Assembly: GCA_019058015.1 (NCBI GenBank)
Contig: JAHLWH010000134.1
Coordinates: forward strand, 10,299 to 74,298
DNA length: 64,000 bases
Origin: Promethearchaeota archaeon
GTDB taxonomy: Archaea > Asgardarchaeota > Lokiarchaeia > Sigyniarchaeales > SOKP01
Reading direction: 5' to 3'
Shown here: positions 35,570 to 57,389 of the stretch, one piece after another
Position numbering within the stretch: the first letter of the stretch is position 1
How the letters are laid out: every line of letters starts with the position of its first letter
Notes under the pieces: model-generated
The model's input: the letters and a program-made list of their open reading frames with translations, nothing else
Told to the model about the DNA's origin: nothing
Database searches by the model: none
Translations under genes and position numbers: made by a program

Positions 35570-35737
35570 TTCTCTTCTTTTTGAGAATATTTAATCATCC
35601 TTAAATTTAAAGTAATAATAATATTAAAATGTTAATTTCAGGAAATATTAAAAAAAAAGTGGTTCTGCAGCATTCCAGTATTAAAAATATTAAAAAATAA
35701 AGGATTTACAGAAAAAATCACTAAGATAATAAACAGT

Positions 35738-36754
35738 TTGGCCCGAAAAATTAATAAACCAATTAAACTGATGCATGTGTGTGGAACACATGAACATACT
35801 ATTTCTAAATATGGAATTCGTTCAATCTTACCTAAAGAACTTGAAATTATTTCCGGTCCTGGATGTCCTGTATGTGTATGTCCTGCAGCCGATATTGATA
35901 AAGCAATAGAGATTGGAAAAAGAGAAGATACAATAATCACAACCTTTGGAGATATGCTCCGGGTTCCTGCAACTAATCTTTCTCTAACAGAATTAAGAGC
36001 TCAGGGAGCAGATGTAAGAATTGTATATGGGCCAAATGATGCAGTTAAAATTGCTAAAGAAAATCCCGATAAAGAAGTTATTTTTTTTGCTATTGGATTT
36101 GAAACAACTGTTCCATTGATTGGATATGAGATTAAAATCAATCCTCCATTAAATTTTTCAGTAATTTGCGCCCATAAACTCATTCCTGCTGCATTGGAAT
36201 TACTTATTGGAATTGACCAATTAAACATAGATGGTTTTATCTCTCCTGGACATGTTGCTACCATAATTGGAACTAAACCATTCCAATTATTTTCTGATGC
36301 ATATCACGTCCCGAATGTTGTAACGGGTTTTGAACCTAATGATGTGCTCATGGCATTGGCTATGTTATTAAAACAAATAAAAAATAAAGAATATAAGACA
36401 GAAAATGAATATACACGAGTAGTTAAATCAGAGGGTAATAAAATTGCCCAAAAAATTATCACTGATGTTTTTGATTCAGTGTCTTCCCCTTGGAGAGGTA
36501 TTGGCCGAATTCTTGATGGTGGTCTAGCAATTAAGGATTCATATTCTAAATATGATGCGGATAAAAAATTTGATATTAAAATTGAAAATTCTATAGATAT
36601 TCAACCAGGTTGTAATTGCCACTTAGTTATGACTGGAAAAATATATCCATATGAATGTAAAATGTTTAAAAAGATTTGCACCCCTGAAAAACCCATAGGC
36701 CCATGCATGGTTAGTGCAGAAGGAACATGTGCAATTTATTATAAATATGGTTAA
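35738..36754 (+). CDS. hypD: hydrogenase maturation protein HypD (start uncertain)
   Basis: MHVCGTHEH, GPGCPVCVCP, GFETT and SPGHV motifs. The tracked start is a TTG only 11 codons before MHVCG; the frame is open back to 35636. Confidence 0.85.
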   Translation: MARKINKPIKLMHVCGTHEHTISKYGIRSILPKELEIISGPGCPVCVCPAADIDKAIEIGKREDTIITTFGDMLRVPATNLSLTELRAQGADVRIVYGPNDAVKIAKENPDKEVIFFAIGFETTVPLIGYEIKINPPLNFSVICAHKLIPAALELLIGIDQLNIDGFISPGHVATIIGTKPFQLFSDAYHVPNVVTGFEPNDVLMALAMLLKQIKNKEYKTENEYTRVVKSEGNKIAQKIITDVFDSVSSPWRGIGRILDGGLAIKDSYSKYDADKKFDIKIENSIDIQPGCNCHLVMTGKIYPYECKMFKKICTPEKPIGPCMVSAEGTCAIYYKYG

Positions 36755-36758
36755 AATA

Positions 36759-37577
36759 TTATATAACTATTCTATCTGGATGAGTATAAATATTCATCTT
36801 GCTTCCCCTTACAAATCCAATTAATGTAATATTATAATTAAATGCAATTCTTATTCCAGATTCAATCGGGGCTGATATTGAGGCTAAAATGGGTATTTTA
36901 CTTCTCGCTGCTTTCAAGACTGAGTCTCCAGTTAATCTTCCAGTTGAGCAGAGAAATGTCTCTTTTAATTCAATATTTTTTATCAAAGCACTCCCAATAA
37001 CTTTATCAATTGCATTATGCCTTCCAATATCTTCAAATATTTCTAATAATTTTCCTTGAAAATTAAACAATGCTGCTCCATGACATCCTCCTGTTTCTTT
37101 AAATAAAGAAGTCTCTTTTTGCATTTTGACAATACTGTTAAATATTAAATCGGAAGTAAGTTTAATATTATTGAATTGTTCTTCAGGTTTATCAATAGAA
37201 TTTAAAATTAAATCTCTCCAAATTGATGGAATACCACAAGATGTTTTTATAATTCTATTATATGTAGAGGAATTGAAGTTTTCAATGGTAGTTTTATTTA
37301 AATCATCAACAAAAATTGAAACCTCGTTTTCAATAGAATTAACTTCTATATTTTTTATTTCATTAATTGAATCAATAAATCCCGTAGTATATAAAAATCC
37401 AATAGTTAATTCTTTAAGATCTTTGGGCAAACAAATAATAGTAACAACTGAATTCTCATTTATTTTAATCGTGATCGGTCTTTCTATTAAAATAGTATCT
37501 TCAATATCATGAAAATTTCCTTTTTGGAGCTTTTTAATTTTATGCATTCTCTTATACATTTTATGGTCCAATTTCAA
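36759..37577 (-). CDS. fdhD: FdhD/NarQ-family sulfurtransferase (formate dehydrogenase accessory protein)
   Basis: GGCHGAALF and EDIGRHNAIDKVIG motifs. Confidence 0.85.
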   Translation of the reverse strand: MKLDHKMYKRMHKIKKLQKGNFHDIEDTILIERPITIKINENSVVTIICLPKDLKELTIGFLYTTGFIDSINEIKNIEVNSIENEVSIFVDDLNKTTIENFNSSTYNRIIKTSCGIPSIWRDLILNSIDKPEEQFNNIKLTSDLIFNSIVKMQKETSLFKETGGCHGAALFNFQGKLLEIFEDIGRHNAIDKVIGSALIKNIELKETFLCSTGRLTGDSVLKAARSKIPILASISAPIESGIRIAFNYNITLIGFVRGSKMNIYTHPDRIVI

Positions 37578-41257: not shown

Positions 41258-42613
41258 TCAATTTTTTTTTAATTGGGAAATTTCTGATTTATACCTTTGA
41301 TAAAATAATTCAACGATATTTTGGAAAAAAAAGCGTTCTTTCAAAACATCATAATGTGATTTATTTTTTAAACTTGTTAATTTTGGTATTTCTTCTGATT
41401 TAATCTTACCCTCCGCTACGAGATTCATTCGACATTTAAATTGGTCAATTAAATCTACTGGTCTAAGAATTATTGAAAATATTTCAGAAATCTCTTTAAT
41501 TAAATCCACTATTTTTAATTTAGTGTTTAATTCCCTATTTGAATATAGATATGAATCTATTTTCTTAATTAGTGACTCTTTCTTATTAATATCAAGATAA
41601 TCTTCCTCTGATATTATATCATCAATAAATCGAATTATTTTATTTATTATGGTTTCATTTATCTTGCTTTTTAAAAATTCATTTGTTAATTTTTGTAAAA
41701 AAGTATCTTTTATATATTTCTTAAATCTGATAATTATTGCTTGACTTTCTTTTCTATCAGAACAAATCTCAATAATTTCACCTTTTGGAGTACTATAACT
41801 AAATCCGTGCCCCTCTGGCCCTAATCCTCCTAAAAAAATCATGGAATATGTATAGAAATTATACCATTTTGGATTTATCATCTTATTTAAATTGATTTTA
41901 ATATTATTTTCTGAAATTAAATGAGTTTTATCGTCAATTTCTATTATTAAGAAATTATCTTCATCATAAATTTCTTTCAAATCAAAATTATGTATTTTAT
42001 TAATGTGAGCTTTAAAGATTTTTAAATATCTTGATATTTTTCCTAAATTTTTTACACTTAATCCATAAACTGAATAATTATTAAAATAGTTACGAATTTG
42101 TTCCGCAATTTCCTCAAGATTACTATAACCTGGATATATTCCATCTGTTTGAACAAATAAATCATATAACCCTTCAGGTAAATCTTTATATACAAAATAG
42201 ATAAAATAATCACTAACTTCTCCAAATATATCCATTAAATTTTCCATAAAAAGAGTTTTTTGCTTTAATTTTTTAATTAAATTAATTTTCTTTTCATTTA
42301 ATTCTCTATAACTTAAATTATAACGAATTACATATTGCAAGATGCTAATAATTCCACCTAAATGTAGATTTTGAATACAATCATTGATAGCTAATTGAAT
42401 TTTTTTAAATCTATCTGGAATTTTTAGAGGATCAACAAAAATGCCTAGTTTTAAGGCTAAATCTAGAATGCTTTGAAAATATTTTAATGAATCAAGAGTT
42501 ATACAATTTGACAATATTTTATGTATGTATTGTTCAGAATCAACATATTTTTTCTCATGAATTTTATTCCGCAATTCTTTTTCTAATTTAGGAAGATACT
42601 TGGGAATATTCAT
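41258..42613 (-). CDS. hypothetical protein, no recognisable family; second gene of the roadblock operon
   Basis: Long uninterrupted ORF 57 nt downstream of the roadblock gene on the same strand. No P-loop or other motif found by eye. One conspicuous Gly-rich patch: IFLGGLGPEGHGFSYSTPKGE. Confidence 0.5.
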   Translation of the reverse strand: MNIPKYLPKLEKELRNKIHEKKYVDSEQYIHKILSNCITLDSLKYFQSILDLALKLGIFVDPLKIPDRFKKIQLAINDCIQNLHLGGIISILQYVIRYNLSYRELNEKKINLIKKLKQKTLFMENLMDIFGEVSDYFIYFVYKDLPEGLYDLFVQTDGIYPGYSNLEEIAEQIRNYFNNYSVYGLSVKNLGKISRYLKIFKAHINKIHNFDLKEIYDEDNFLIIEIDDKTHLISENNIKINLNKMINPKWYNFYTYSMIFLGGLGPEGHGFSYSTPKGEIIEICSDRKESQAIIIRFKKYIKDTFLQKLTNEFLKSKINETIINKIIRFIDDIISEEDYLDINKKESLIKKIDSYLYSNRELNTKLKIVDLIKEISEIFSIILRPVDLIDQFKCRMNLVAEGKIKSEEIPKLTSLKNKSHYDVLKERFFFQNIVELFYQRYKSEISQLKKN

Positions 42614-42670: not shown

Positions 42671-43063
42671 TTAATCTAATAAGTTAGCTATTTTTTTAGA
42701 AGCAGCAATAATATTTAGGAAAACCATGCCCAAAGAAGGATTTTGAGATGTCAAAACACACAGGATTGCATTGTTTCCTGCCCTTGATAAAATAATTAAG
42801 CCCTCATCTCCTTCAATCATAATTCTTTTAAAATTTCCACGGGCTAACTCAGATACAGCTCTCTCGGATACACTTATTATAGCAGCAGACATAGCACTTA
42901 TAATACCGTTATTAGTTTCTCCTCCATATACAGTTCTTAATCTTGGGAGGGCGCTAGCTATTGGTAATCCTTGAATACTAACAATAGAACTCCCTTGAAT
43001 TTCAGAATTCATTGCTTCCATTTGTCGAAGTATATTTGCAAGTTCCGAGAGGTTTTCTGACAA
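42671..43063 (-). CDS. roadblock/LC7 (MglB-like) domain protein
   Basis: Helix (LSELANILRQMEAMNSEI) - G - strand pair (SSIVSIQGLPIAS) - helix (ISAMSAAIISVSERA) - three strands (FKRIMIEGDEGLIILSRAGNNAILCVLT) - helix. 130 aa. Confidence 0.75.
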   Translation of the reverse strand: MSENLSELANILRQMEAMNSEIQGSSIVSIQGLPIASALPRLRTVYGGETNNGIISAMSAAIISVSERAVSELARGNFKRIMIEGDEGLIILSRAGNNAILCVLTSQNPSLGMVFLNIIAASKKIANLLD

Positions 43064-43248: not shown

Positions 43249-44292
43249 ATGAGTGAGAAGAAAGCTCCAAAAACAGTTAAAAATCGAATAGAAAATTCAA
43301 CTGAACAACAAAATGAAGAAAAAGAAGATTATAAAGAAAAACCAATTGTAAAAGAATCACCAGATGAAAAAAAGAAAGAAGAGGAAGATGAATTAAAAAA
43401 AAAGATTGAATCGACCAAAAAAGCAGGAGAAATCGCCAAAAAAATAAAAGATGCTATTCGCCCTAAAATAAAAGTCGGTGTAAAAGCAATTGACATAATA
43501 AAAGAAATTGAGAATATGATTTTTGATTTAGAAGCTAAACCTGCTTTTCCAATCAATATCTGCATTAATAACATTGCTGCACATTATACTTCACCTGTAA
43601 AAGATGAGATGGTAATAAATGAGGGAGATATTGTTAAAATTGATTTTGGAGTTCATATCGATGGTTATTGTGTTGACACTGCATTTACTTTAAGTTTTAA
43701 TGATAATGAAGAACTAAAAAATATAGTAGAAGCACCAGAAGTAGCGGTTAAGGCAGCAATAATGATGATGAAACCCGGTGTTAAAACCAATGAGATTGGT
43801 AATAAAATTGAGCAAATAATTAAAGGTTATGGATTTAAATCGATAAAGGAGTTGGGAGGTCATTCTGTAGAACGGTGGAGAGTTCATGGATCAAAAGAAC
43901 TCCCAAACCAAAGCTCAAAGCATGGAATAGAAATTGAAGAAAAAGAAATATTTGCCGTTGAAGTTTTTGCTTCTACTGGAGAAGGAACGGTTCATAGATC
44001 CGGAAATGTGCATATTTATAGCCTAAATCCTTCTGCTGGGAGAGTTCCTTTAAGACGAAAAATTTCCAGAAAGATTTTAGGCTTTATCTCAAAAGAATAT
44101 AAAACATTACCTTTTTGTGAGCGACAACTTATAGCTGAATTAAAAACTGGTATTAGCTTTGGATTACAAGAACTAAAAAATTCAGGGAAAATCACTCAAT
44201 ATCCTGTACTTCTTGAAAGGAAAGGTGTATATATTTCGCAACATGAGGAAACAGTTTTAATTACCAAAGATGGATGTACACAATTAACTTAG
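43249..44292 (+). CDS. map: type 2 methionine aminopeptidase with Lys/Glu-rich N-terminal extension
   Basis: DFGVHIDGYCVDTAFT, GGHSVERWRVHG, FAVEVFASTGEG and QHEETVLITKDG metal-ligand regions. About 55 aa of charged N-terminal sequence precede the catalytic domain. Confidence 0.85.
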   Translation: MSEKKAPKTVKNRIENSTEQQNEEKEDYKEKPIVKESPDEKKKEEEDELKKKIESTKKAGEIAKKIKDAIRPKIKVGVKAIDIIKEIENMIFDLEAKPAFPINICINNIAAHYTSPVKDEMVINEGDIVKIDFGVHIDGYCVDTAFTLSFNDNEELKNIVEAPEVAVKAAIMMMKPGVKTNEIGNKIEQIIKGYGFKSIKELGGHSVERWRVHGSKELPNQSSKHGIEIEEKEIFAVEVFASTGEGTVHRSGNVHIYSLNPSAGRVPLRRKISRKILGFISKEYKTLPFCERQLIAELKTGISFGLQELKNSGKITQYPVLLERKGVYISQHEETVLITKDGCTQLT

Positions 44293-44338: not shown

Positions 44339-45466
44339 ATGCGAAAAAAAGGCAAATTAAACAAAAATAATCCCATAAAAATCTGTCTTGTATCTCTTGC
44401 CTTTTTTCCGGATAAAAAAGATGGATCTGCAAAAATTGCTACCTCTATCTATAATTATTTAAACGATAATGGCTATGATATAAAGGTTATCACTGCAAAA
44501 TGGAATGTTGATTTAAAAGATCCAAATATAATTCAAATAAATATTATTAGAAAGAGATTTTTTTGGTTCCCTCAATTCATATTAAGTGTTTTCAGAATTT
44601 TAAACAAACAAAAATTTGATATAATTCATGGTAATGGATCTAGGGTAAGTATTTCATTTCTTTTTAGAAAATATCTTACTACTATTCACGATCTAGGACC
44701 TTTTGAAACAAGTTTTTCAAAAATCCCAATTTTACTAATGTTAGAAAAATTAAATGCTTTTAGAGCTAAAAGAATAATTACTCCATCAAATATAATTAAA
44801 ATGGGTTTAAAATATTACATTCGACGACTTAATATTAAAAAAATTAAATGTGTATATAATCCAATCGATCCAAAATTTAAACCTTATCCTAAACAAGGCT
44901 TTTCTCTAAAAGAAAAATTGAATTTAAAGGGACCAACTATTCTTTATATCGGACGTATCGCATTTTATAAAGGTATAGATGATATTATTAAAGCCTATCA
45001 CTTAGTAAAAAAGGAAATACCTGATTTAAATTTAGTTATTGGGGGAAAACCTACATTAAAAATGGCAAATATATATCAAAGTTGGAAAGAAAAATATAAA
45101 GATATAAAATTTGTAGGAATGATTCCAGAAGAAAAGATTCAACATTACTATTCCATGGCAGATGTGTTTGTTACTTATTCTAATGCATCCGAAGGATTTG
45201 GTTTAACTCCAATCGAATCTATTGCTTGTGGAACTCCAGTAATTTGTTCAAATCTTCCAGCATATAGAGAGATATTAGGTGATAATGCTATTTTTGTTCC
45301 CCCGAAAGAACCTGAATTATTGGCAGAAAAAATCAAATATTATTTTAAGAAAGAAGAAATTAAAAAAAATTTAATAAATAAATCTCAAGAAATAATTAAA
45401 AAGTATTCTATGGAGTCTTTTGGTAAAAATTTATTAGACATTTATCAAGAATTCCTTAAAATTTAG
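44339..45466 (+). CDS. glycosyltransferase (GT4-like)
   Basis: SNASEGFGLTPIESIACGTPVICSNLPAYREI donor-binding region. Confidence 0.8.
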   Translation: MRKKGKLNKNNPIKICLVSLAFFPDKKDGSAKIATSIYNYLNDNGYDIKVITAKWNVDLKDPNIIQINIIRKRFFWFPQFILSVFRILNKQKFDIIHGNGSRVSISFLFRKYLTTIHDLGPFETSFSKIPILLMLEKLNAFRAKRIITPSNIIKMGLKYYIRRLNIKKIKCVYNPIDPKFKPYPKQGFSLKEKLNLKGPTILYIGRIAFYKGIDDIIKAYHLVKKEIPDLNLVIGGKPTLKMANIYQSWKEKYKDIKFVGMIPEEKIQHYYSMADVFVTYSNASEGFGLTPIESIACGTPVICSNLPAYREILGDNAIFVPPKEPELLAEKIKYYFKKEEIKKNLINKSQEIIKKYSMESFGKNLLDIYQEFLKI

Positions 45467-46529
45467 AAATTCTTTCTTTAAATTTAGTTATACATATTTC
45501 AATTGGATTGTCTAATTTTCTAATTTTTTGAAAAGTATCAATTTTGTAATTACTTTCTAAATATTTAATTGCCTGATTGACAGAATCCTTTGCTAAATGA
45601 AAATGTTTTAAAGGAAAGCCATTATCCATAAGAAATTGCTCTTGTGGATAAGTTTCTAAAGGAAAAAATTCAATAGAAGGCACACCTAATAAAGCAGATT
45701 CTCTCACCATAGTTCCACCGCCAGTAATTACTAATTTCGCAAAATACATTATTTGGGCTAAATTATCTAATCCTTGGTATATTTTAACGGTATCAACATT
45801 AATATATTCATTAAATTTTAACTTAAGAAAATTATATTGTTCCTCATTTCGAGTTATGATTAAAAATTTATAGTCAGATGTATGCTGTAATAATTCAGGT
45901 ATTATCTCTGATAATTGAGTTTCATGAGGTTTCATTTTAATAGCTAAATAACCAGCCTTAGTAGGTTCTGTTCGACACACAACATACTTATCTTTTGTCA
46001 AATTTAAATAATTTAAAACGCTTTCATCTGGAATAAAGTCTGAAAGCCATCCAACCTCATCAATTCCATTAAATCGAATTATTTTTTCTTCTTTAAGCCC
46101 ATATTCTAAATACAATTTTAATGGAATACATTTTGGGACAATAATTTGATTTACATAGGGGAATGTTGTAGAACATGGTCCATAAGATCTTGGTTCATCA
46201 TTAAACATTATATTAGGAATCTGGAGCCCAAAGGAAATTCGTAATGCCTCTGGACTTGTTATACAAAATAAAAATTCTGGTTTTTCCTTACTAATAACTT
46301 CAATTAGTTCTGACAGTCTTTTTGAATATGCCTCTAATTTACCAAGTACAGTTCTCCCACCATACTTTCCTACTGGAATATAATCTACTCCCCATTTATT
46401 TAATAAATAATAGGTCGAATCAAAATCCCTCGCAGTTATGAAAACGTCATTATCCTTCATTAATTTTTCATAAAGAGGTCTAAGCATTGTAACACTTTTT
46501 GGCTCACAAAAATCTAACCAAATTTTCAA
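45456..46529 (-). CDS. DUF354-family protein (predicted GT-B glycosyltransferase/epimerase-like)
   Basis: MKIWLDFCEPKSV..FITARDFDSTYYLLNKWGVDY N-terminus, characteristic of DUF354. C-terminal GGGTMVRESALLGVPSI. Confidence 0.7.
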   Translation of the reverse strand: MKIWLDFCEPKSVTMLRPLYEKLMKDNDVFITARDFDSTYYLLNKWGVDYIPVGKYGGRTVLGKLEAYSKRLSELIEVISKEKPEFLFCITSPEALRISFGLQIPNIMFNDEPRSYGPCSTTFPYVNQIIVPKCIPLKLYLEYGLKEEKIIRFNGIDEVGWLSDFIPDESVLNYLNLTKDKYVVCRTEPTKAGYLAIKMKPHETQLSEIIPELLQHTSDYKFLIITRNEEQYNFLKLKFNEYINVDTVKIYQGLDNLAQIMYFAKLVITGGGTMVRESALLGVPSIEFFPLETYPQEQFLMDNGFPLKHFHLAKDSVNQAIKYLESNYKIDTFQKIRKLDNPIEICITKFKERISKF

Positions 46530-46552: not shown

Positions 46553-47566
46553 TTAAACCCTAGGTTGACAATTCCACTGTTCTAAATTTTCCCTAATCCA
46601 TTCTACTTCTTTTTTAACGCCTTCTTCAAACTTAATTTTAGGTTCATAATCTAATTCTTTAGAAATTAAAGAACTATCTAAAATAAAATCTCTCAATTCT
46701 CCAGGTAATCTTTTTCGATTAGGTTGATATTTGCTAGATTCACCTGGTTTAGGATCATCATAAATTGGTTTTAATTTAGGATTTATGAGTTTAATAACGA
46801 TTTCGGCAACTTCATTAATTGAATAAAATTCTTTTCCTCCAACGTTATATACTTTACCACCAGTTTTCTCATTTTTTAACGCAAGAATATTGGCATCAAC
46901 CGCATCATTAATATATACATAATCTCGAACTTGTTTTCCATCTCCAAATATTATCGGTGCCTTACCCTCTAAAACTCTTTTAATAAATAATGTTAATACT
47001 CTTCCATACCACTCTCTCGGTCCATATACAATTCCATACCGAAGTGAAGTAGTTGGAAAACCATATAATAAATAATATTGAAGGCAATATTTTTCTCCCG
47101 CTAATTTACTCACTCCATAAGGCCAATGAGGCATTAATGGATGATTTTCTGGCTCTGGAGTTAATTGAGCTTGCCCATAAACACCTCCAGAAGAAGCATA
47201 AATTAATTTTTCTACATCATTTTTTAATGCCGCGTTTAATACATTTAGAGTTCCTTCTATATTAGTTCGTAAATCATGGATTGTATTTTCGATTCCAGTA
47301 AAAACTTCAAGTTCAGCGGCATGATGTGAAACTAAATCCACATCTTTCATGCTCTCTTCTAACTTTTCATAGTCTAAAATATCCCCTTTTATTATTTCTA
47401 TAGGTTTTTTTTCGAGAAAATCTTTATTACCAGTTGAAAAATTATCATATACAATTACTTTACCAGCTTCTTCTTCTAAAAATCGATCTACTAAATGAGA
47501 ACCAATAAAACCGGCTCCCCCTGTAATCAAAACATTTTTTCCTTCAATATTCATTATTTTTCCCAT
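46553..47566 (-). CDS. NAD-dependent nucleotide-sugar epimerase/dehydratase (SDR)
   Basis: VLITGGAGFIGSHLVDRF and YGVSKLAGE (YxxxK). Confidence 0.9.
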   Translation of the reverse strand: MGKIMNIEGKNVLITGGAGFIGSHLVDRFLEEEAGKVIVYDNFSTGNKDFLEKKPIEIIKGDILDYEKLEESMKDVDLVSHHAAELEVFTGIENTIHDLRTNIEGTLNVLNAALKNDVEKLIYASSGGVYGQAQLTPEPENHPLMPHWPYGVSKLAGEKYCLQYYLLYGFPTTSLRYGIVYGPREWYGRVLTLFIKRVLEGKAPIIFGDGKQVRDYVYINDAVDANILALKNEKTGGKVYNVGGKEFYSINEVAEIVIKLINPKLKPIYDDPKPGESSKYQPNRKRLPGELRDFILDSSLISKELDYEPKIKFEEGVKKEVEWIRENLEQWNCQPRV

Positions 47567-47598: not shown

Positions 47599-47916
47599 TT
47601 AACCTTTAAATTCCTTATTACATTGACACGGCTTTGAATTACACACATAACATTTATCCGGATATTTATTCTTTAAAGATTTTTCTAAGTCTATATTAAG
47701 AATGTTTGCAATGGATACTGTCCAAGCAATTATATCTGCTAATTCTTCAGAAATGTGGGGAATTTCTAATTCCTCCATCTTTAAATTCCTAGCTAATTCT
47801 CCTATTTCCACTACTAGCCATATAAAATTTTTATACACTCCCCTCTCTTTATCCCGATGATAATATAAATCTTTTATGAGCTTTTGAAATTCTGAGATTC
47901 TCATTTTACAACTCAC
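47599..47916 (-). CDS. MazG-like nucleotide pyrophosphohydrolase domain protein with Cys-rich tail
   Basis: EIGELARNL..EELADIIAWTVSIANILNIDL (EExxE/D-type helices). C-terminal CYVCNSKPCQC. Confidence 0.6.
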   Translation of the reverse strand: MSCKMRISEFQKLIKDLYYHRDKERGVYKNFIWLVVEIGELARNLKMEELEIPHISEELADIIAWTVSIANILNIDLEKSLKNKYPDKCYVCNSKPCQCNKEFKG

Positions 47917-47976: not shown

Positions 47977-48186
47977 TTAAAGAATCCAATCAAATACATG
48001 CACATGAGAAAGAATAACTATTACAATAAGTATTAAAGCAAAAATGACTGCACTTAATGGGCCAATCTTAATTCCTATGGAACTGTCTTCAAAAAACCTC
48101 ATAAGACCTGCACCACTTTGAGGCATGGGCGAACTTTTTGACCTTCTTCTCTTCCTTCTACTTCTTTGCGACATCTTTTTAATCAA
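47977..48186 (-). CDS. secG: protein translocase subunit Sec61-beta (archaeal SecG)
   Basis: Basic N-terminus (RSRRKRRRSK), SGAGLMRFFED motif, and a single C-terminal TM helix. 69 aa. Confidence 0.8.
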   Translation of the reverse strand: MIKKMSQRSRRKRRRSKSSPMPQSGAGLMRFFEDSSIGIKIGPLSAVIFALILIVIVILSHVHVFDWIL

Positions 48187-48343
48187 AATGTGGTTTAATT
48201 GATATATAATTTATAAGAAATCTAAATTATTTAAAATTACTAAAATATATGTATAGTAAATTTTATGAATTAATGATTATTTTTTAAAAAATATTAAAGT
48301 AAGTTCAAATTAAAACATTTAAGTTTTCGAGAGTCGTTAGAAA

Positions 48344-50203
48344 GTGAAAAAGTATAATATAATATCTAATAAATTTAAAATAAATAAGCATTTTTTATTA
48401 TTTACTTTCTTAATTTCCATCTTAATTTTTTGTTTATTAATTCCATTATTGAAAAATAAAAATAGCAATAATTTTCAAACTCCTAGTACTTTAAAAAATT
48501 CCTCAAATTTTAACACATTTGAAGGTGTTCAAATTACAGAACTCTATAGGAATGTGGAATTAAGTGGAAATGGATTATTAACTGCAGAAGACACATTTAC
48601 TATAAAAAATATCCATAATAACCCAATCTCTTTTATTACAATGGGTATAGATAAATCTTTTATTGAAAATCTCATTTATTATGACGCAAAAGGACCATAT
48701 TCAGAATCATTAGATGTTCAATTCTCAGAAACAATGATTGAGACATTTAAAATGGTATATATTTATTTTGATTGTCCATTACTCCCTTCTCAGGAGATCT
48801 CAATCACTTTTACTCATTCATATAAAGACCTTTATAATTTTTCTGTAATGAGTGTAGGACAAGAGCAAATGCAAACAATTGTGTTTAATTTTTATATATA
48901 TCCAATTGTCCCTTATGAGGTTGATTATGTAGGTATATTTTTTTTTCATCCAGAACTCGGAGAAGAAGTATTAACAATTAATGATTCGGGTGAAGAGGGA
49001 AAATTTGAAGGTGGGTTTTTACAATATTCTAAGGAATTTATGAGGCCTTTCTATTATAAATTGATAATAGGTACCTTTGATTATTCTGAGAACACTAAAT
49101 TGCAAATTGATAAAATATTAAGAAAAATTACATTTAACTCACTAGGTTATTTAATTGTGGATGAGACACTCACAATTCACAATACTGGGGCGATTCCAAT
49201 ATCAGAATTTTCTGTCAAAATTCCAACTGTTGTATCAGAAGTTGAAGTATTTGATTATCTAGGGCCAATAGAAGGTACTTCACTAGACTCAGAACCTAAT
49301 CTTGATGGAACTACCAAAGATTTAACAATTTTATTGACACAAAATAGGGTAACCCTATATGTGGATTCTAAATTCGATTTTTCCATAAGGTATCAATTGC
49401 CCTATGATGAATATCATGTATTTAATTGGCTCTATAATTCTATTTCAATCGATTTATTACTCACAAAATGTGATTATGTTATATATGATCAAGAAATTCA
49501 AATTATTATTGATGGTTGTGAAAATATTATGTCCATAACTGAACAACCTAATTCAATTAAAACGCTTGGGGATGATCTGGTATTAATTTTTAATGATGAT
49601 ATAATTTCACCCCTTGATGAAAAACACATAAACATTATATACACTTTAGATTTTCTTGAAATTTTAATGAGACCATTAATTTTTACAATTCTGTTTATGA
49701 TCCTTTTCACGTCTTTTGTAATAATAACAAAAATTAGGAAAGAAGAATTACCAATTGATGCTTATAGAAAAAGAGATATTCCAATAAAGGAATTACGTGA
49801 ATTTTATTCCTTATATGAAGAGAAAAATGCAATTTACCTAGATATTCAGCAAGCAGATGATGATGTGAAAAGAAAGAAACTTACTAGAAAGAAATATCTT
49901 AATGTGTTAAAGAAATATGAGTTAAGATTAAAATCACTAGAAAACGAACTTGCCCCTCTCAGGAAAAAATTAGAAGAATCAACGAAAATTTTTGAAAATA
50001 TATTTAAAAAACTTGAATTATTTGAAGCTGAAAGATTAAGTTTAAAAGATAATATAAATTTGTTAGAAAACAGATATAAGCGCGGCAGACTACCTTCAAA
50101 AAATGCTTTTGAGAAATTAATGGGCGATTTTCTTAAACGTCGAGAAAAAGTTCGGAAGGCGATAGACCGGCAAATAAATGAGCTTAAAGCATACCTCTAT
50201 TAA
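48344..50203 (+). CDS. ribophorin I (OST1)-like type I membrane protein
   Basis: Layout is N-terminal hydrophobic anchor/signal, ~400-aa beta-rich domain, one TM (LIFTILFMILFTSFVII), then a ~165-aa coiled-coil tail, the same as eukaryotic ribophorin I. Local matches by eye to human RPN1 blocks: ITELYRNVELSGNGLLTAED; ILRKITFNSLGYLIVDETLTIHNTGA versus [32 protein letters not shown] versus VGYNLP. Confidence 0.6.
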   Translation: MKKYNIISNKFKINKHFLLFTFLISILIFCLLIPLLKNKNSNNFQTPSTLKNSSNFNTFEGVQITELYRNVELSGNGLLTAEDTFTIKNIHNNPISFITMGIDKSFIENLIYYDAKGPYSESLDVQFSETMIETFKMVYIYFDCPLLPSQEISITFTHSYKDLYNFSVMSVGQEQMQTIVFNFYIYPIVPYEVDYVGIFFFHPELGEEVLTINDSGEEGKFEGGFLQYSKEFMRPFYYKLIIGTFDYSENTKLQIDKILRKITFNSLGYLIVDETLTIHNTGAIPISEFSVKIPTVVSEVEVFDYLGPIEGTSLDSEPNLDGTTKDLTILLTQNRVTLYVDSKFDFSIRYQLPYDEYHVFNWLYNSISIDLLLTKCDYVIYDQEIQIIIDGCENIMSITEQPNSIKTLGDDLVLIFNDDIISPLDEKHINIIYTLDFLEILMRPLIFTILFMILFTSFVIITKIRKEELPIDAYRKRDIPIKELREFYSLYEEKNAIYLDIQQADDDVKRKKLTRKKYLNVLKKYELRLKSLENELAPLRKKLEESTKIFENIFKKLELFEAERLSLKDNINLLENRYKRGRLPSKNAFEKLMGDFLKRREKVRKAIDRQINELKAYLY

Positions 50204-50241
50204 AATTATATTCCAAATTGCAAAAAATTTATATGATTTAA

Positions 50242-50892
50242 ATGAAACCTTGGCTTTTTGACATCTTAGCATGCCCAATAGATAAAAATTTTCCTTTAGA
50301 ACTCTTAATACTAAAATGGGAAACCAATATAAATGAATTTGAAGAATTCTTAAAAATTTTTCAAGTTCGAAATGAAAAATCCATTAAAAATGAAGAATTA
50401 ATAAAATGTACTGAACCTGAAAATCGTTTAAAAATTCGGGATGGCATAGCTCTCAAATTTAAAAAACCTTCTGAATACCTAAATACGATAAACTCAAGCA
50501 TTCAAGAACTCAAAAATATAATAAATCTTACAAAAGAACCAATAATTAAAAAATGTATTGATATCCTTAAAACAAGCGTAAAGAGAAAAATTGAATCAAC
50601 TATAAACCTTATCTCAAAGGAAGATAAAAAAGAAAAAATAAAGGAAATTATTAATTCTATCCTTCCAGAATTATATCTTATCAATAAATTTAAAATTGAT
50701 ACTGAAATAGAAGAAGGTATTTTATTTTGCTCCAAATGTAATAGATGGTATCCTATCGTTCAAACAATACCTCAAATGTTACCAGATAAATATAGGAATG
50801 AAAAAGAAGATATTACTTTTTTAACTAAATGGAAGGAAACTCTTGATACAATTAATTTCTTACAAAGAGATCTGATCCCATTTAAAATCTAA
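50242..50892 (+). CDS. Trm112-like zinc-ribbon protein with ~130-aa helical insertion
   Basis: N-terminal LFDILACPIDKNFPLEL and C-terminal GILFCSKCNRWYPIVQTIPQMLPD form the two halves of the Trm112/DUF343 knuckle. They are separated by Lys/Glu/Ile-rich helical sequence. Confidence 0.55.
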   Translation: MKPWLFDILACPIDKNFPLELLILKWETNINEFEEFLKIFQVRNEKSIKNEELIKCTEPENRLKIRDGIALKFKKPSEYLNTINSSIQELKNIINLTKEPIIKKCIDILKTSVKRKIESTINLISKEDKKEKIKEIINSILPELYLINKFKIDTEIEEGILFCSKCNRWYPIVQTIPQMLPDKYRNEKEDITFLTKWKETLDTINFLQRDLIPFKI

Positions 50893-50978
50893 AGAAATAA
50901 TTAAAAACTAATCCTTTTAAAATAATTTTAATTATTGTATTATTAAATTAGAATTCATAAAAGGTAAAAGAGAAATAA

Positions 50979-51073
50979 AGCTCCGTCGTCTAGTGGCCAA
51001 ATTTTAAAAAATTAAAGGCTAAGGATTCGGGGCCTTGAACCCCGAAACGCAGGTTCGAATCCTGCCGGAGCTA
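50979..51073 (+). tRNA. tRNA-Gln (anticodon UUG) with a ~22-nt intron in the D-loop
   Basis: Acceptor AGCTCCG/CGGAGCT (7 bp) plus discriminator A. T-arm GCAGG-TTCGAAT-CCTGC. Anticodon arm CGGGG-CCTTGAA-CCCCG, with TTG at 51035-51037. D-stem GTCT/GGAT encloses an oversized AT-rich loop. Locally GC-rich island in AT-rich DNA. Confidence 0.8.
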
Positions 51074-51137
51074 TTATTAGAGTTGGGCTTTTATGCCAAT
51101 CCTTTAAATTCTCAATTAATTTAGGTGAATTATATAA

Positions 51138-52391
51138 GTGCAAAGTTTTTCTGAATATCAATTTGGCGTAGTGGAAATAATTAATTTAGTTATTCTATTC
51201 ATAATTATTTTCATAATAACTTATTTCGTTATTCCATTCGTAATTAAATTCACAAGGTCAAAAGGATGGATTGGAATTGATATTCATAAGGTAGAAAAAC
51301 CTGAAGTTGCTGAGTCCGGAGGAATAAGTATAGTAATAGGGTTGTGTTTCGCATTAGTTTTTATGTTAATACTATTTCCTTCACTTACAAATGAACTATT
51401 AGTTATCATATTAACAATTATAATAGCGGGAGTTATTGGACTTATTGATGACAGAAAAAAACTCTCATCAATAAAAAAAATAATTTTAACTATCATAACT
51501 GGTGGACCTATTTTCATTCTGAATTTTATTAACTTTATCGATGTAGATAGCCCCACAATCCCTATTTTAGGAATGTTACGTCTTAATTACATTTATCCAT
51601 TTGTATTACCTGTAATTATTGCAGTTACAACAAATACAGTCAATATGCTTGAAGGCTATAACGGAGAAGGTTCAGGAACATGTCTAATAGCTGTAATTTT
51701 TATGTTTCTTTCGGGTTTAATTTGGAATTCAGCCCAAGCAGTAATATATTCAGTTCCCTTTATTGCAATATTATTAGCTTTTTTCTTATACAATAAATAT
51801 CCTGCAAAAGTTTTTCCAGGTGATGTAGGAACTATTACTATTGGAGCAATGATAGGTTGTATAGCAATTTTTGGTTCAATCGAAGTGCCAACGTTTTGTG
51901 TTTTATTAGGACATGTTTTTAACAGTTTTTATGTATTATCTTCTATTAGGCGATTACTCGAAAGTAGCCAGATTCAAATAAAGCAAAGTGATATTATCTT
52001 TTTAGAAAATGGTAAAATTAAAGCTTCAAGGGAGGATGATGCAGCAATGAGTTTACCAAGGTTACTCCTCGCAAAAGGAGAATTGACTGAACCTGAATTA
52101 GTGAAAAATTTTTTTGCTTTATCATTTATTTGTGGTCAATTTGCAATTATTGCTGCTTTATCAATGCAATGGACTCTATATTATGATAATTTGGCATTTT
52201 TGATTATTTCAGGAATAATTTTTATTTTAATATGTGGGAGTTTTTCATTAATTATTTATTGGAAATTTCCGAGAATTAGAGGGATTTCAATAATAATGGT
52301 AACGTTATTAACTTGTGGAATTGTTTTTGTATGGTTTATTGATTGGTTTATAGTACAAACACCATTGAATGTGTTGTGGAGTGCAGTTTAA
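51138..52391 (+). CDS. UDP-GlcNAc:dolichyl/polyprenyl-phosphate GlcNAc-1-phosphate transferase (AglH/ALG7, glycosyltransferase family 4 of MraY/WecA type)
   Basis: GLIDDRKKL, NTVNMLEGYNGEGSG (NxxNxxxGxNGxExG, the archaeal/eukaryotic form) and VFPGDVGTITIGAMIG. About 10 TM helices. GTG start. Confidence 0.8.
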   Translation: MQSFSEYQFGVVEIINLVILFIIIFIITYFVIPFVIKFTRSKGWIGIDIHKVEKPEVAESGGISIVIGLCFALVFMLILFPSLTNELLVIILTIIIAGVIGLIDDRKKLSSIKKIILTIITGGPIFILNFINFIDVDSPTIPILGMLRLNYIYPFVLPVIIAVTTNTVNMLEGYNGEGSGTCLIAVIFMFLSGLIWNSAQAVIYSVPFIAILLAFFLYNKYPAKVFPGDVGTITIGAMIGCIAIFGSIEVPTFCVLLGHVFNSFYVLSSIRRLLESSQIQIKQSDIIFLENGKIKASREDDAAMSLPRLLLAKGELTEPELVKNFFALSFICGQFAIIAALSMQWTLYYDNLAFLIISGIIFILICGSFSLIIYWKFPRIRGISIIMVTLLTCGIVFVWFIDWFIVQTPLNVLWSAV

Positions 52392-52513
52392 CCGCTATTG
52401 GCTTAGGACTATGGTATTATGTAGGTTGCTTCCGTTATTTTTGGAAGCAAATTGATAAAATGAAGAAAAGAGAAGATAAAGAAAATATTTAAGCCAGCTT
52501 AATTCAAACCAAG

Positions 52514-53677
52514 TCATTTAAGATTTTTATAATTTTTAATTATATCAATTAGCTTTTTAGATAATTTTGCAGAATTGAGTTTTTTTTGAAACAATTCATA
52601 TCCATTCAATGCAATTTCATTTCTCAATTTTTCATTTTCATATAATGTGATAATAGCATTTGCTAGGCTATCTGGATCGGCGATTTTACATAAGTAACAA
52701 TTCTTTTGATGCGTTAATAGTTCATTTATTGCTTTTGTATTTGCGGTAATTATTGGTTTTCTCATTGCTAATGCAGTATAAACTTTATTTGGAATAACTC
52801 TTCTCGCTTTCAACGTAGAACCAAATATTCCCAATTGAATATCAGACCTTGCAATTGTTTGTGGTATTAGATTAATTGGAATTTGAGGAAAAAAACTAAT
52901 ATTTGAAATTCCAAGTTTTTTAACAATTTTTTTCGTTTCAAATATCTCTGGTTTTGTTCCACCGACAATTTCAAATATTATGTCTTTAGTATATTGTTCT
53001 ATTCTTTTAGCTGATTTAATAATATATTCAATCCCATGCAATGGAATGTAATTACCATTAAATCCAATAACAAACTTATCTTTAAATCCTTCATATTTCT
53101 GAGGATAAAACAACACCTCGTTAACTCCTAAAAATATCCTAAAAATTTTTTTTGGATTTAAATGGAAAAATTGACTAAATCGATATTTTTCCATATCTGA
53201 TTGTGAAATTATTAAATCTGATAAATGAAAAGCAATCCATTCAATTAAGTAATAAAATTTTGCTAAAAACGATTTCTTTTTCAATTTTCGATAATCCATT
53301 GTAACAGAATCAATTAAAGAAGTGTATGGATTAAAAATAATTGGGATTTTTCTATTAAATATTTTCCATGATAAAATTCTTAAAAAATATGCTAAGTATA
53401 ATGATTCGTGACCCGGATAACCGATATAAATACAAACTATATCATAATAATTTGATTTAAAATATTTTTTAATTAAATTAATGTTACGATTTATAAAATT
53501 CCTAAAAAATGATAAAGTAAACATATGTTTTTGATTAGTTAAAAAATCTCTTACTAGATTAGGGGTCGAAAAATTTACTGTAATAATCTCTATATCTTTG
53601 ATTTTTTTCAAACCATTTAGAAAAACTCTATTCACATTTCTATTTTCGTCAAATGCTCCAAAAAAACAAATTTTCAT
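52514..53677 (-). CDS. glycosyltransferase (GT-B fold)
   Basis: FVIGFNGNYIPLHGIEYII..IFEIVGG..VIPNKVYTALAMRKPIITANT layout of Glycos_transf_1-like proteins. Confidence 0.6.
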   Translation of the reverse strand: MKICFFGAFDENRNVNRVFLNGLKKIKDIEIITVNFSTPNLVRDFLTNQKHMFTLSFFRNFINRNINLIKKYFKSNYYDIVCIYIGYPGHESLYLAYFLRILSWKIFNRKIPIIFNPYTSLIDSVTMDYRKLKKKSFLAKFYYLIEWIAFHLSDLIISQSDMEKYRFSQFFHLNPKKIFRIFLGVNEVLFYPQKYEGFKDKFVIGFNGNYIPLHGIEYIIKSAKRIEQYTKDIIFEIVGGTKPEIFETKKIVKKLGISNISFFPQIPINLIPQTIARSDIQLGIFGSTLKARRVIPNKVYTALAMRKPIITANTKAINELLTHQKNCYLCKIADPDSLANAIITLYENEKLRNEIALNGYELFQKKLNSAKLSKKLIDIIKNYKNLK

Positions 53678-54911: not shown

Positions 54912-57389
54912 ATGGAGAAAAATAAACGAATTCTTATTTTAATTCTTACTTTATTGCTGTCTGGTCTATCTGTATACTTATTTGGATTTGTATTTTTCAC
55001 TCTTGACTGGATAATAATAATATTAGATATTGCATTTTGGATTACACTTCTTTTATATTTTTTTTTAGTCAATGAAATATATCATTGGGTAAAAGAAGGA
55101 AAAAGAAGTGAATTAGCTGATATTGTTTTTATTGCTTTTTTATTCTTTTTTATATTTTTTCTATTTAAGGATTTAATGACTTCATTTATGGGCGCCTTCT
55201 TTATTTATCTTTTATTAGGAAGATCCGAAGTAAAAGAATATGAAGTATTAAGCAAATTACTTGATATTTCATTGATTACTTATGCAGTAATCTTTTTCTC
55301 AGGGATAATTTCAAGAATTGTAAATAATGATATTATTATTAATACTGCTTTCTCTTTTTCTATTTGGTTAATTTTAGGCTTAGGTTTTGCATACTTTGGA
55401 AGAAAATATATAATTGTATTTAGATTTATGAGTCCTGAATATCTCACATTACTCCTGTATGTTCTCGCATGGTTAATCGTTATCTTTATCAATCAATATA
55501 CACCTTTAAATTTCATTGATTATATCTACTATGTTTTACTTATTACAAATTGGGTCATCTATTTCATTTCAGGTCCAATTTTAGATAAAATGTTGGGTAT
55601 AAAAAGAGTCCAAGATGAGAAACTTCTCAAATTAGTCAACAAATTAAAGGAAAAAGTGGGGATACGTGGAAAAGTTAAGGTAGGATTTGGTAAATATCCA
55701 ATACTCAATGCGATGGCTTATGGTTCTTTTTTAGATAAAAGAGTGGCAATCATTGCTGAAGATATTTCTGAAATAGCAGAGGATGAAATAGATGGAATAA
55801 TTGCACATGAACTTGCACATACAAAAGAATACCATACTTTATTTTTAACGCTTTTAACTTCTATCGATTTAATCTTCAGAATGATATTTAATATTCCAGC
55901 CACATATTACGACTATGTCTTTGGAAATCCCTCTATTCCACTAGTAGCTTTTATATTTTTAAATTTGGGAATTTTTATTATATTATTTATATTTGTAAGA
56001 TTTTTAGAAAGTCGAGCTGACTTAAAAACCAAGAAAATAGGCCTTGGTCTTAATCTTGCCAAAGCTCTCTATAATCTAGAAAGCTTCTACGCACACGGAC
56101 GCGAAGTGGGACTTAACACTATATTACTCGCGGAAGAGAAGCAAAATCCAAATAATATATTATTAGATTATATGAGTACTGCGGAATATATTAATAATTC
56201 AATGATACAACCCTCAAGATTATCTTTACTCAGCAATTTTATTAACTCTCATCCGCCAACTTATTTTAGAATTGCAGCAATTCTAGGTGATAATTTAAAA
56301 CCCTTAAAAGAAGCGTTTTTAACTTTTTTTTTAATGAAAAAATCTAAACAGAGAAAATATGCAGAGAAATTTTCTCAAGCGAGAGAATTATTTACAAAAG
56401 TAGCAACTACTAAATTTAAAGAAAAATTTGAGATTTCTAATATTCCAGAAATGATGGAACACCTAAATAAAAAAGAAATATATCAAAAATATTTCAATAA
56501 AACATATTTATTTAAGAATAAAGTCACTAAAGCTATAATTTTGGGCAAATTAATTGATATCTCATTCACCAATGAAATTACTAATCCTGTTGAATTCATT
56601 ATTGAAAATTTAGAGGGAAATATAAAAGAAAAAATTAACCCTTCTTTCTATAGTTCAATAGAATTCCAAATAGATGGAAAATATTTTTTTGAAAAAGAAA
56701 ATCCAATTATTCTTACTAAAGTTGATTTATTAGAAGACCATACTAAGGGAAATTTTGTATTTAAGTCAAAATCCAATGATACAATTCATAAGAATATAAA
56801 TAAAACCAAACTCCCAAAATCTATAAAAATAATTGAAAATCTTAAAGGAAAAGAAGTCTTCTTTACCACGAAAGGCACGATATCAATAAGGGAATGTACT
56901 GATATAACACCCTCTGAGATATATGGTGATTATAAGATCGCACTTCTAGAATATGCTGATTCTGACGATAATTCAAAGCCAATAGTATATGATTTAAAAG
57001 ATTTAATTGTTAAAACATCTGAAAATGGTATCGGAATAATTTTTTATCGTGATTTAAATACTAAACCATATGAATTAAAAATTCTAGAATGGCTAAAAGA
57101 TAAACAGATTAGGACTTCAATCTTTCTAAAAAAACCGGTCAATAATGAGGAAATCGGTTATCTCCAAAAAAATATAGTCAATTTCAGAAATCAAGATGAA
57201 ATTGAAAAAAGCAAGGTTATAATTAAAAATATATTTGGGGAAGAAATTGAAATTCCTTATAAAAAAATTGAGCTAGTTCTTTTTAATTATGATTCAGTTG
57301 TCATTCTGCAGAAAAATAAAACGAGTATTTTTAGTAAATTAGGCTATAAAATACTAAAAAAATTCGCACCACAAAAAATATTTATCTAA
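54912..57389 (+). CDS. membrane-embedded M48-family (HtpX/Ste24-like) zinc metalloprotease with large C-terminal soluble domain
   Basis: About 7 N-terminal TM helices. ILNAMAYG..IIAHELAHTKEYH (HExxH), ESRADLKT and SHPPTYFRIAAIL. The ~350 C-terminal residues have no recognised family. Confidence 0.7.
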   Translation: MEKNKRILILILTLLLSGLSVYLFGFVFFTLDWIIIILDIAFWITLLLYFFLVNEIYHWVKEGKRSELADIVFIAFLFFFIFFLFKDLMTSFMGAFFIYLLLGRSEVKEYEVLSKLLDISLITYAVIFFSGIISRIVNNDIIINTAFSFSIWLILGLGFAYFGRKYIIVFRFMSPEYLTLLLYVLAWLIVIFINQYTPLNFIDYIYYVLLITNWVIYFISGPILDKMLGIKRVQDEKLLKLVNKLKEKVGIRGKVKVGFGKYPILNAMAYGSFLDKRVAIIAEDISEIAEDEIDGIIAHELAHTKEYHTLFLTLLTSIDLIFRMIFNIPATYYDYVFGNPSIPLVAFIFLNLGIFIILFIFVRFLESRADLKTKKIGLGLNLAKALYNLESFYAHGREVGLNTILLAEEKQNPNNILLDYMSTAEYINNSMIQPSRLSLLSNFINSHPPTYFRIAAILGDNLKPLKEAFLTFFLMKKSKQRKYAEKFSQARELFTKVATTKFKEKFEISNIPEMMEHLNKKEIYQKYFNKTYLFKNKVTKAIILGKLIDISFTNEITNPVEFIIENLEGNIKEKINPSFYSSIEFQIDGKYFFEKENPIILTKVDLLEDHTKGNFVFKSKSNDTIHKNINKTKLPKSIKIIENLKGKEVFFTTKGTISIRECTDITPSEIYGDYKIALLEYADSDDNSKPIVYDLKDLIVKTSENGIGIIFYRDLNTKPYELKILEWLKDKQIRTSIFLKKPVNNEEIGYLQKNIVNFRNQDEIEKSKVIIKNIFGEEIEIPYKKIELVLFNYDSVVILQKNKTSIFSKLGYKILKKFAPQKIFI

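Follow-up and report, generated by a model that had tools for sequence, protein, structure and literature searches.

Sec61-beta and ribophorin I are divergent neighbors in a conserved gene block of Loki-type archaea, a candidate unit for N-glycosylation at the translocon

Gene content of the locus

We analyzed a 64,000-nt stretch of Promethearchaeota DNA (assembly GCA_019058015.1, contig JAHLWH010000134.1, positions 10,299 to 74,298; hereafter the window), in which the gene for the translocon subunit Sec61-beta lies divergently beside a gene for ribophorin I (OST1), an accessory subunit of oligosaccharyltransferase (OST), with glycan genes on both sides. The pair is conserved in the Loki-type archaea we sampled, and the surrounding genes make up a candidate block for N-glycosylation at the translocon. 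The window has a G+C content of 26-33% and matches contigs from two metagenome-assembled genomes (MAGs) of Lokiarchaeia, GCA_019058035.1 and GCA_019058215.1, at 99.9% identity.

A previous sequence-only reading of this DNA had named the genes of the block, placed further glycosyltransferases on its flanks, and reported that the window holds no STT3/AglB gene. All three statements stand (Table 1). The named protein identities hold in Pfam, that of ribophorin I also at the level of fold, and the flanking glycosyltransferases on either side are Pfam-supported members of the GT1 family. Among open reading frames (ORFs) of at least 450 aa in the window, none matches STT3 in Pfam, and the AglB catalytic motif WWDxG occurs in none of the six frames. 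Three unannotated ORFs of 451-483 aa were considered as possible STT3 genes and rejected, having neither a Pfam match nor the motif.

The genes on each side of the Sec61-beta/ribophorin spacer are tightly packed. Gaps within the two units measure 23-86 nt in the window; across Loki-type loci, the median gap is 45 nt between the MazG-like and Sec61-beta genes and 25 nt between the ribophorin I and Trm112-like genes. Such short gaps fit two divergent operon-like units.

Table 1. Features of the glycosylation block and its edges (window coordinates)
Feature	Coordinates	Strand	Support	Remark
Methionine aminopeptidase-like gene (Peptidase_M24)	43249..44292	+	Pfam	Left edge of the Loki-type conserved block
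GT-B glycosyltransferase (Glycos_transf_1 / Glyco_transf_4; GT1 family)	44339..45466	+	Pfam 124.9 bits	Conserved block member
DUF354 protein, GT-B-like	45456..46529	-	Pfam DUF354 159 bits, Glyco_tran_28_C 25.7 bits	End of the leftward unit
NAD-dependent sugar-nucleotide epimerase/dehydratase	46553..47566	-	Pfam Epimerase 203.8 bits	
Small MazG-like NTP pyrophosphohydrolase-domain protein	47599..47916	-	Pfam MazG 31.3 bits	Directly downstream of Sec61-beta
Sec61-beta (archaeal Sec-beta), 65 aa, tail-anchored	47977..48174	-	Pfam PF03911	Heads the leftward unit
Divergent spacer, 169 bp	48175..48343			Presumed bidirectional promoter region
Ribophorin I / OST1 homolog, 619 aa	48344..50203	+	Pfam PF04597 and fold	
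Trm112-like zinc-ribbon protein, 216 aa	50242..50892	+	Pfam Trm112p 40.4 bits, split match	
Candidate tRNA-Gln(UUG) with ~20-nt D-loop insert	~50979..51073	+	Rfam partial match; ARAGORN after insert deletion	
ALG7/AglH-type (predicted) GlcNAc-1-P transferase (Glycos_transf_4)	51138..52492	+	Pfam 105 bits	Frameshift at 52389; ORF ends at 52391
Second GT-B glycosyltransferase (Glycos_transf_1; GT1 family)	52514..53677	-	Pfam 64.4 bits	Kept in close relatives only

Ribophorin I, Sec61-beta and their shared spacer

The ribophorin I homolog scores 54.4 bits against Pfam PF04597 (cut-off 25; residues 63-290), and its C-terminal 147 residues match in sequence PDB 8WHN, the solved cytoplasmic domain of OST1 from the cultured strain MK-D1 (E 1.4e-34, 46% identity). 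An AlphaFold2 model from 26 sequences (predicted local distance difference test [pLDDT], 81.9) places an N-terminal helix before a luminal-type beta-sandwich (residues 62-435), a transmembrane helix (437-464), and a cytoplasmic four-helix bundle (481-618).

When this model was compared to the PDB with Foldseek, the eight best matches were all OST1/RPN1 chains, with E values from 1e-22 to 1e-32. The human OST-A chain on the Sec61 translocon (8b6l_O, E 5e-32) matched over its full length, as did 6s7o_E; the OST-B chain 6s7t_E reached a TM-score of 0.77 (root-mean-square deviation [rmsd] 4.2 over 440 columns), and the yeast chains 7oci_A and 6ezn_A reached 0.76 and 0.74. For 8WHN, the TM-score was 0.92 and the rmsd 1.6. 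We rejected a generic beta-sandwich match, as the next class, the N-domains of M1 aminopeptidases, had E values weaker by ~20 orders of magnitude. The ribophorin I assignment, which the sequence-only reading had named as a point that might fail, is secure in light of the model's resemblance to human RPN1 and yeast Ost1 and of the match to 8WHN. The modeled window protein has the fold of the mammalian-type ribosome-binding bundle, a C-terminal element that yeast Ost1 is without (PMC6761772).

Sec61-beta exceeds the cut-offs of both Pfam PF03911 (49.7 bits vs 27) and the NCBIfam equivalog PRK01253 (56.2 vs 55) and has the expected architecture of 65 aa with a basic N-terminus and a single C-terminal hydrophobic helix. 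The window contains neither SecY nor SecE. The window protein begins MSQRSRRK at ATG 48174. We take this codon, and not TTG 48186, as the start because the N-terminus MS..R..RRKKRRSG..PMP.GGAGLMRFFEDSS is common to ~60 relatives. An intergenic region of 157 bp (48187-48343) had been proposed previously; with the corrected start the spacer becomes 169 bp.

In 98 relatives, the spacer between the two genes has a median length of 152 bp and mostly measures 124-160 bp. Three elements recur at set positions in the 92 distinct spacers: ATAAATTTTTAT, starting ~61 nt before the ribophorin start (interquartile range 59-63) in 85 of them; TTAATTATTTTTAGATAATTT, starting ~41 nt before it in 74; and TTTAAAATTTTATC, ~70 nt from the Sec61-beta start in 53. 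A diverged copy of ATAAATTTTTAT lies in the window spacer at 48255-48266. From established knowledge of archaeal promoters, the element from -41 to -21 would sit where a B recognition element and TATA box (BRE/TATA) are expected for a leaderless or nearly leaderless mRNA.

Conservation in the Loki-type clade

A HMMER search of 1.84 billion representatives with a profile of relatives returned 510 relatives of ribophorin I (E<=1e-3). Grouped at 30% identity, they make up a Loki-type clade (G1), another large one (G2), the smaller clades G3-G7, and four singletons. A repeat word-index protein search, made with an alignment, gave 15 Loki-type proteins, none of them new. For gene order, we assembled 148 loci, comprising 57 GTDB species representatives (one genome per species), 80 Joint Genome Institute (JGI) metagenome contigs, 9 earlier look-ups, and 2 later look-ups of G2. 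The JGI scan used a G3 and G5 alignment as its query and returned mostly Loki-type loci, along with G3, G5, and G6.

Sec61-beta on the minus strand and ribophorin I on the plus strand stand back to back in ~97 of 98 non-redundant G1 loci with at least 600 bp of upstream sequence, ~50 species-level genomes included; the single miss has only 921 bp upstream. On the ribophorin side, the Trm112-like gene follows directly in all 103 G1 loci and the transferase lies within 5 kb downstream in 75 of 77, while on the other side MazG adjoins Sec61-beta in 93%. The commonest architecture, found in 47 loci, runs M24-GT1-DUF354-...-MazG-Sec61b and, divergently, RibI-Trm112-GT4. The epimerase slot of the window is variable, and in many relatives a hexapeptide-repeat gene occupies it.

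This order is kept among ribophorins of only moderate similarity (median pairwise identity 48%, minimum 29%), and the pair outlives changes in its flanks. In different loci, the transferase and an ATP-grasp gene have moved upstream of MazG, MazG has been lost, or DUF354 has moved downstream; the pair is also kept with a wholly different upstream context and with inserts of up to 4 kb between the Trm112-like and transferase genes. Because ~97 of 98 loci retain the pair despite these rearrangements, the adjacency is conserved above chance.

Eleven G1 loci are labeled 'Thor-', 'Odin-', 'Hod-' or 'Hermodarchaeota' by one submitter. We do not read these labels as a wider distribution than Loki. The ribophorins of the eleven loci share 50-88% identity with Promethearchaeota-labeled ones and interleave with them, and we therefore treat G1 as one Loki-type clade. 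The cultured strain Promethearchaeum syntrophicum MK-D1 belongs to a G1 subclade outside the locus sample, its nearest representative being P0038. The RefSeq accessions of its OST1 and Sec61-beta are numbered one after the other (WP_147663064 and WP_147663065; Table S1 of PMC11417166), which suggests the same adjacency there.

Ribophorin I loci in other clades

Outside G1, Sec61-beta was not found near ribophorin I in any clade sampled: 0/4 loci in G2, 0/2 in G3, 0/1 in G5, and 0/10 in G6. Fifteen of these 17 loci were searched in six frames with a relaxed hidden Markov model (HMM) search, and the two later G2 loci through called genes and ORFs of at least 60 aa. G3 is labeled Lokiarchaeota/Promethearchaeota (yet has 56% G+C), G5 'Asgardarchaeia', and G7 Atabeyarchaeia. 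Because Sec61-beta is absent from the loci of the other clades, of which G3 and G5 bear Asgard labels, the pairing is not Asgard-wide. The conservation across Asgard genomes that had been put forward as a check is thus borne out for the Loki-type loci and not for G2, G3, G5, and G6.

This distribution raises the possibility, which we take seriously while rating it short of probable, that the pair is frozen synteny: an accidental adjacency in the Loki-type ancestor, kept because the short shared spacer and tight packing would make breaks harmful or infrequent, with neither joint function nor joint regulation. The 17 loci lacking the adjacency in four other clades are in keeping with it, as is the near-equal conservation of the neighboring junctions (93% for MazG-Sec61b and 100% for RibI-Trm112). 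Moreover, the block mixes unrelated functions, and the Loki-type observations share ancestry and hence are not independent. Against it stand the survival of the pair through several independent flank rearrangements and the constraint on spacer length and motifs down to ~30-35% ribophorin identity. The glycosylation genes on both flanks of Sec61-beta further argue that its position is not functionally random.

The same loci bear on a more literal explanation, in which ribophorin I would dock the archaeal OST on the translocon by binding Sec61-beta, such that the gene pairing mirrors a contact. The two proteins each cross the membrane once and in eukaryotes belong to one supercomplex, the ribophorin model matches RPN1 of the human Sec61-TRAP-OST-A translocon (TRAP, translocon-associated protein) over its full length, and the adjacency is strictly kept in the Loki-type clade. 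Yet other clades with the same ribophorin architecture lack the adjacency, and the mammalian precedent invoked for a physical link does not extend to these two proteins: it is the Ost3-related DC2 that touches Sec61-beta, as well as Sec61-gamma and transmembrane helix 1 of Sec61-alpha, whereas RPN1 does not touch Sec61-beta and places its four-helix bundle on the ribosome, at eL28 and rRNA helices H25 and H19/20 (PMC6761772). We consider direct coupling very unlikely.

Some G6 ribophorins (P0127 and P0132; loci L129-L146, e.g., L130 4807-7743) are ~975-1000 aa long, with an N-terminal FKBP-type prolyl isomerase and bacterial Ig (Big_7) domains fused ahead of the ribophorin part, and a Glycos_transf_4 gene lies divergently upstream of these long forms in every case. 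We also note that glycine-cleavage P-protein genes recur near ribophorin I in G2, G5, and G6.

Partner genes of ribophorin I

Beyond G1, the recurrent neighbors of ribophorin I are a Glycos_transf_4 transferase and the Trm112-like gene. The transferase gene lies divergently from ribophorin I in both G3 loci and all 10 G6 loci, and the Trm112-like gene adjoins ribophorin I or lies within ~1 kb of it in G3 (2/2), G6, and one G5 locus. In G2, the constant upstream neighbor is instead a hexapeptide-repeat gene (GMPPB_C/LbH-like; sugar-enzyme-like; 4/4, loci L065, L066, L147, and L148), whose product matches (E ~1e-58) that of a gene located between DUF354 and MazG in 35 G1 loci (e.g., L063 1345-2100). 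Ribophorin I is accordingly tied to the genes for the ALG7-type transferase and the Trm112-like protein by the older and wider linkage; its pairing with Sec61-beta is an addition made in one clade. The Trm112-like gene, treated as a bystander previously, is with the transferase the more widely conserved partner of ribophorin I.

The transferase scores 105 bits against Glycos_transf_4 (PF00953). Its best solved relative is human DPAGT1 (E 2e-12, vs 2e-7 for MraY), with which its DD, NxxNxxxGxNG (NtvNmleGyNGegsG), and VFxGD (VFPGD) motifs align; NCBIfam MraY models score far under their cut-offs. From these features, the protein is predicted to be an ALG7/AglH-type N-acetylglucosamine (GlcNAc)-1-P transferase that starts the lipid-linked glycan. 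In the window, one base is missing at 52389 by comparison with a MAG contig of 99.9% identity (L001, position 14046); the deletion brings in a stop at 52391 and cuts off the last 34 aa, including the last transmembrane helix, which are encoded in another frame (52343-52492). In that MAG, the gene is intact and encodes 451 aa. The frameshift could be an assembly error or a strain-level variant or pseudogene.

The DUF354 protein, a constant block member kept in 88 loci, shows weak similarity to the C-terminal part of MurG/GT28 (a weak match to NCBIfam murG). Alg13/14 genes are not found in most Asgard species, and on the basis of Meyer et al. we propose DUF354 as a candidate for the Alg13/14 step, the second GlcNAc transfer.

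In the Trm112-like protein, the Pfam Trm112p match is split around a ~130-aa helical insert that the G1 and G3 proteins have and the G6 proteins lack. The protein falls below the NCBIfam Trm112_arch (NF038101) equivalog cut-off, scoring 52.5 bits against 77, and a short G6 homolog scores 53.6. In a profile search, its best PDB match is 6zxw_H (E 9e-10), with human TRMT112 at 6e-4. A C-terminal extension, MLPDxxR..FLxxW..PF, reaches ~35 aa past the Trm112 domain and is conserved; the invariant segments across the ribophorin-linked proteins are MKPWLxDILACP and C..C.RWYPI...IP.MLPD..R....FL..W....PF. A single-sequence AlphaFold2 model had a pLDDT of 38.6, too low for use of its fold. We note that these proteins form a distinct Trm112-like subfamily tied to ribophorin I in four clades (the window gene; L067 7947-8645; L130 9224-9607, minus strand; L122 2015-2392, minus strand).

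The tRNA gene downstream of the Trm112-like gene went uncalled in its native sequence both by ARAGORN and by Rfam at the gathering score; a sensitive Rfam search gave a partial match (51010-51065) at 27.5 bits against a cut-off of 29. After removal of ~18-25 nt from the D-loop region, ARAGORN calls tRNA-Gln(ttg). We rejected tRNA-Phe(aaa), offered by the ARAGORN intron option, as the Gln(UUG) call obtained after deletion of the insert matches the intact tRNA-Gln(UUG) that relatives carry in the same slot. The D-loop insert is a candidate intron at a non-canonical position. With CCUUGAA as its anticodon loop, the tRNA would have C at position 33, where U is usual. In G1, at least 12 clean calls place a tRNA-Gln(UUG) 3′ of the Trm112-like gene and on its strand, and 9 G6 loci show this order too.

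This pairing suggests another explanation, namely that the block is at its core a translation-linked unit of Trm112-like protein and tRNA-Gln, with ribophorin I alongside as a ribosome-binding factor and the glycosylation genes as passengers. It draws on the recurrence of the Trm112-like/tRNA-Gln(UUG) pair in both G1 and G6 (opposite strand in the latter), on the Trm112 family (6zxw_H, TRMT112) being the closest solved relatives of the Trm112-like profile, and on the binding of ribosomes by the cytoplasmic domain of MK-D1 OST1 (PMC11417166). We nevertheless find it quite unlikely. Linkage of ribophorin I to the ALG7-type transferase reaches at least as far (G1, G3, and G6), and G2 has the hexapeptide-repeat gene as the linked neighbor. 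The Trm112-like protein itself misses the archaeal equivalog cut-off and bears a family-specific extension, and the block contains no methyltransferase gene that could serve as its partner.

The wider linkage also allows a more ambitious hypothesis. Ribophorin I/OST1, the ALG7-type transferase, and the Trm112-like protein would form an ancestral Asgard module, in which the Trm112-like protein is an unrecognized cytoplasmic partner of the ribosome-binding OST1 bundle or of the transferase. A link from glycan initiation and OST to translating ribosomes and the translocon would thereby predate eukaryotes, Sec61-beta having been added to this regulatory unit later in the Loki-type lineage. We regard this as unlikely.

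Other genes in the window

A Roadblock/LC7 (Robl_LC7) gene (42671-43063, minus strand) adjoins an unannotated 451-aa ORF with no Pfam match (41258-42613, minus strand); the same pair occurs in locus L001, and L003 has Robl_LC7 with another partner. Two genes past the transferase lies an unusually long Peptidase_M48 gene (Ste24/HtpX family; 825 aa; 54912-57389, plus strand), whose position is kept in the close relatives L001, L003, and L004. As M48 proteases serve in membrane-protein quality control, the location may have a bearing on the translocon. A hydrogenase-maturation cluster (30203-37577), ~10 kb upstream of the block, comprises HypF, a HypE-like AIR-synthase-related protein, and HypD, and also includes genes for FdhD and a radical SAM protein of the B12-binding type.

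Discussion

We propose, at a probability of roughly 0.55, that the locus is a Loki-type conserved block for N-glycosylation at the translocon, built around a short bidirectional promoter region and co-expressed from the shared spacer. The leftward unit would run from Sec61-beta through the MazG-like protein and the sugar-nucleotide enzyme to the DUF354 glycosyltransferase, and the rightward unit from ribophorin I/OST1 through the Trm112-like protein and tRNA-Gln(UUG) to the ALG7/AglH-type GlcNAc-1-P transferase. Co-expression of both units from the spacer is the most likely mode. Together, they would supply the enzyme that initiates the lipid-linked glycan and enzymes that extend it, along with a translocon subunit and an OST accessory subunit carrying a ribosome-binding cytoplasmic bundle. 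The proteins would meet in a ribosome-SecYE-beta-AglB assembly and not by direct contact of Sec61-beta with ribophorin I. The analysis establishes which genes are present, how the modeled protein folds, that gene order and spacer are conserved, and that aglB is missing; co-transcription, shared regulation, and physical association of the block's products are what we infer from this. The pair is a genuine candidate for clade-specific co-expression and not evidence that Sec61-beta and ribophorin I touch.

Several observations weigh against this proposal. None of the 17 non-G1 loci with upstream DNA has Sec61-beta within the 6-10 kb that surround ribophorin I, a result to be read with the Loki-type origin of the sequences from which the Sec61-beta HMM was built and with the small non-G1 sample, whose taxonomy is known in part and which covers G2, G3, G5, and G6, with G4, G7, and named Heimdallarchaeia outside it. 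AglB, the catalytic partner, is not near ribophorin I in any of the 146 loci checked for WWDxG. The transferase reading frame is broken in the window. Finally, a ~10-gene block is kept to much the same extent as the pair, and it holds a methionine aminopeptidase, MazG, the Trm112-like gene, and tRNA-Gln, which have no obvious link to glycosylation; inherited gene order could therefore explain the pair, and co-regulation of the two units is inferred only.

These observations touch on the question of whether a ribosome-translocon-OST supercomplex and co-translational N-glycosylation were present in the archaeal ancestors of eukaryotes. Prior work on Asgard OST1 and Sec61 took the genes singly. 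A bidirectional Sec61-beta/OST1 unit is a concrete regulatory prediction for Loki-type archaea, of which two cultured strains exist, MK-D1 and Lokiarchaeum ossiferum. The role of the archaeal ribophorin homolog in N-glycosylation has been questioned (PMC8993221), and the linkage of OST1 with an ALG7-type transferase ties the homolog to that pathway by genomic context. The block also nominates two uncharacterized candidates, the Trm112-like protein and the DUF354 glycosyltransferase. The most useful lead, in our view, is the OST1/Trm112-like/ALG7-type linkage, over the Sec61-beta pairing. We judge the value of these findings as moderate, given known parts and evidence of a purely comparative kind.

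Comparison with known systems

One close parallel is the eukaryotic ribosome-Sec61-OST-A translocon (PDB 8B6L, 6S7O, and 6FTI), with which the window shares a full-length RPN1-like protein and a bona fide Sec61-beta. Unlike in the window, the eukaryotic translocon genes are unclustered, and the archaeal assembly is a putative one. OST1, Ost3/6, and STT3 have been known from Asgard archaea since 2017, with more subunits of OST and TRAP following in 2023 (PMC10307638). The OST1 of MK-D1 (8WHN) is of the same family and architecture as the window ribophorin, in a different Loki-type subclade, and its cytoplasmic domain binds eukaryotic ribosomes (Carilo et al., J Biol Chem 2024, PMC11417166). A 2024 glycoproteomics study gives Ost1 (ribophorin I) as absent from MK-D1 (PMC11284389), in conflict with PMC11417166 (WP_147663064.1) and with PDB 8WHN.

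Among single components, the window transferase shares with ALG7/DPAGT1/AglH the PF00953 domain and the DD, N..N...G.NG, and VFxGD motifs, from which its activity and lipid substrate are predicted; it differs from DPAGT1 in a ~100-aa insertion and in C-terminal transmembrane helices that do not align. The Trm112-like protein shares the split Trm112p domain with Trm112/UPF0434 (YcaR) and its profile matches 6zxw_H and TRMT112, whereas Trm112 proper is without the ~35-aa C-terminal extension; the Trm112-like gene moreover has those of ribophorin I and the ALG7-type transferase as genomic partners.

While the components are thus known, the gene arrangement is undescribed in the literature we searched, most subscription journals being outside it: the MK-D1 translocon paper makes no mention of the gene neighborhood (PMC11417166), and we found no paper joining ribophorin, archaea, and Trm112. 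The archaeal agl clusters of Haloferax and Methanococcus bring together, as the window does, glycosyltransferases, sugar-nucleotide enzymes, and the initiating transferase. In MK-D1, the agl genes are reported to be dispersed and away from aglB (PMC11284389). The agl clusters center on aglB, whereas the window cluster is without aglB, is centered on OST1, and includes a translocon subunit. We therefore view the arrangement as a variant of the archaeal glycosylation clusters, one that is new within the literature searched.

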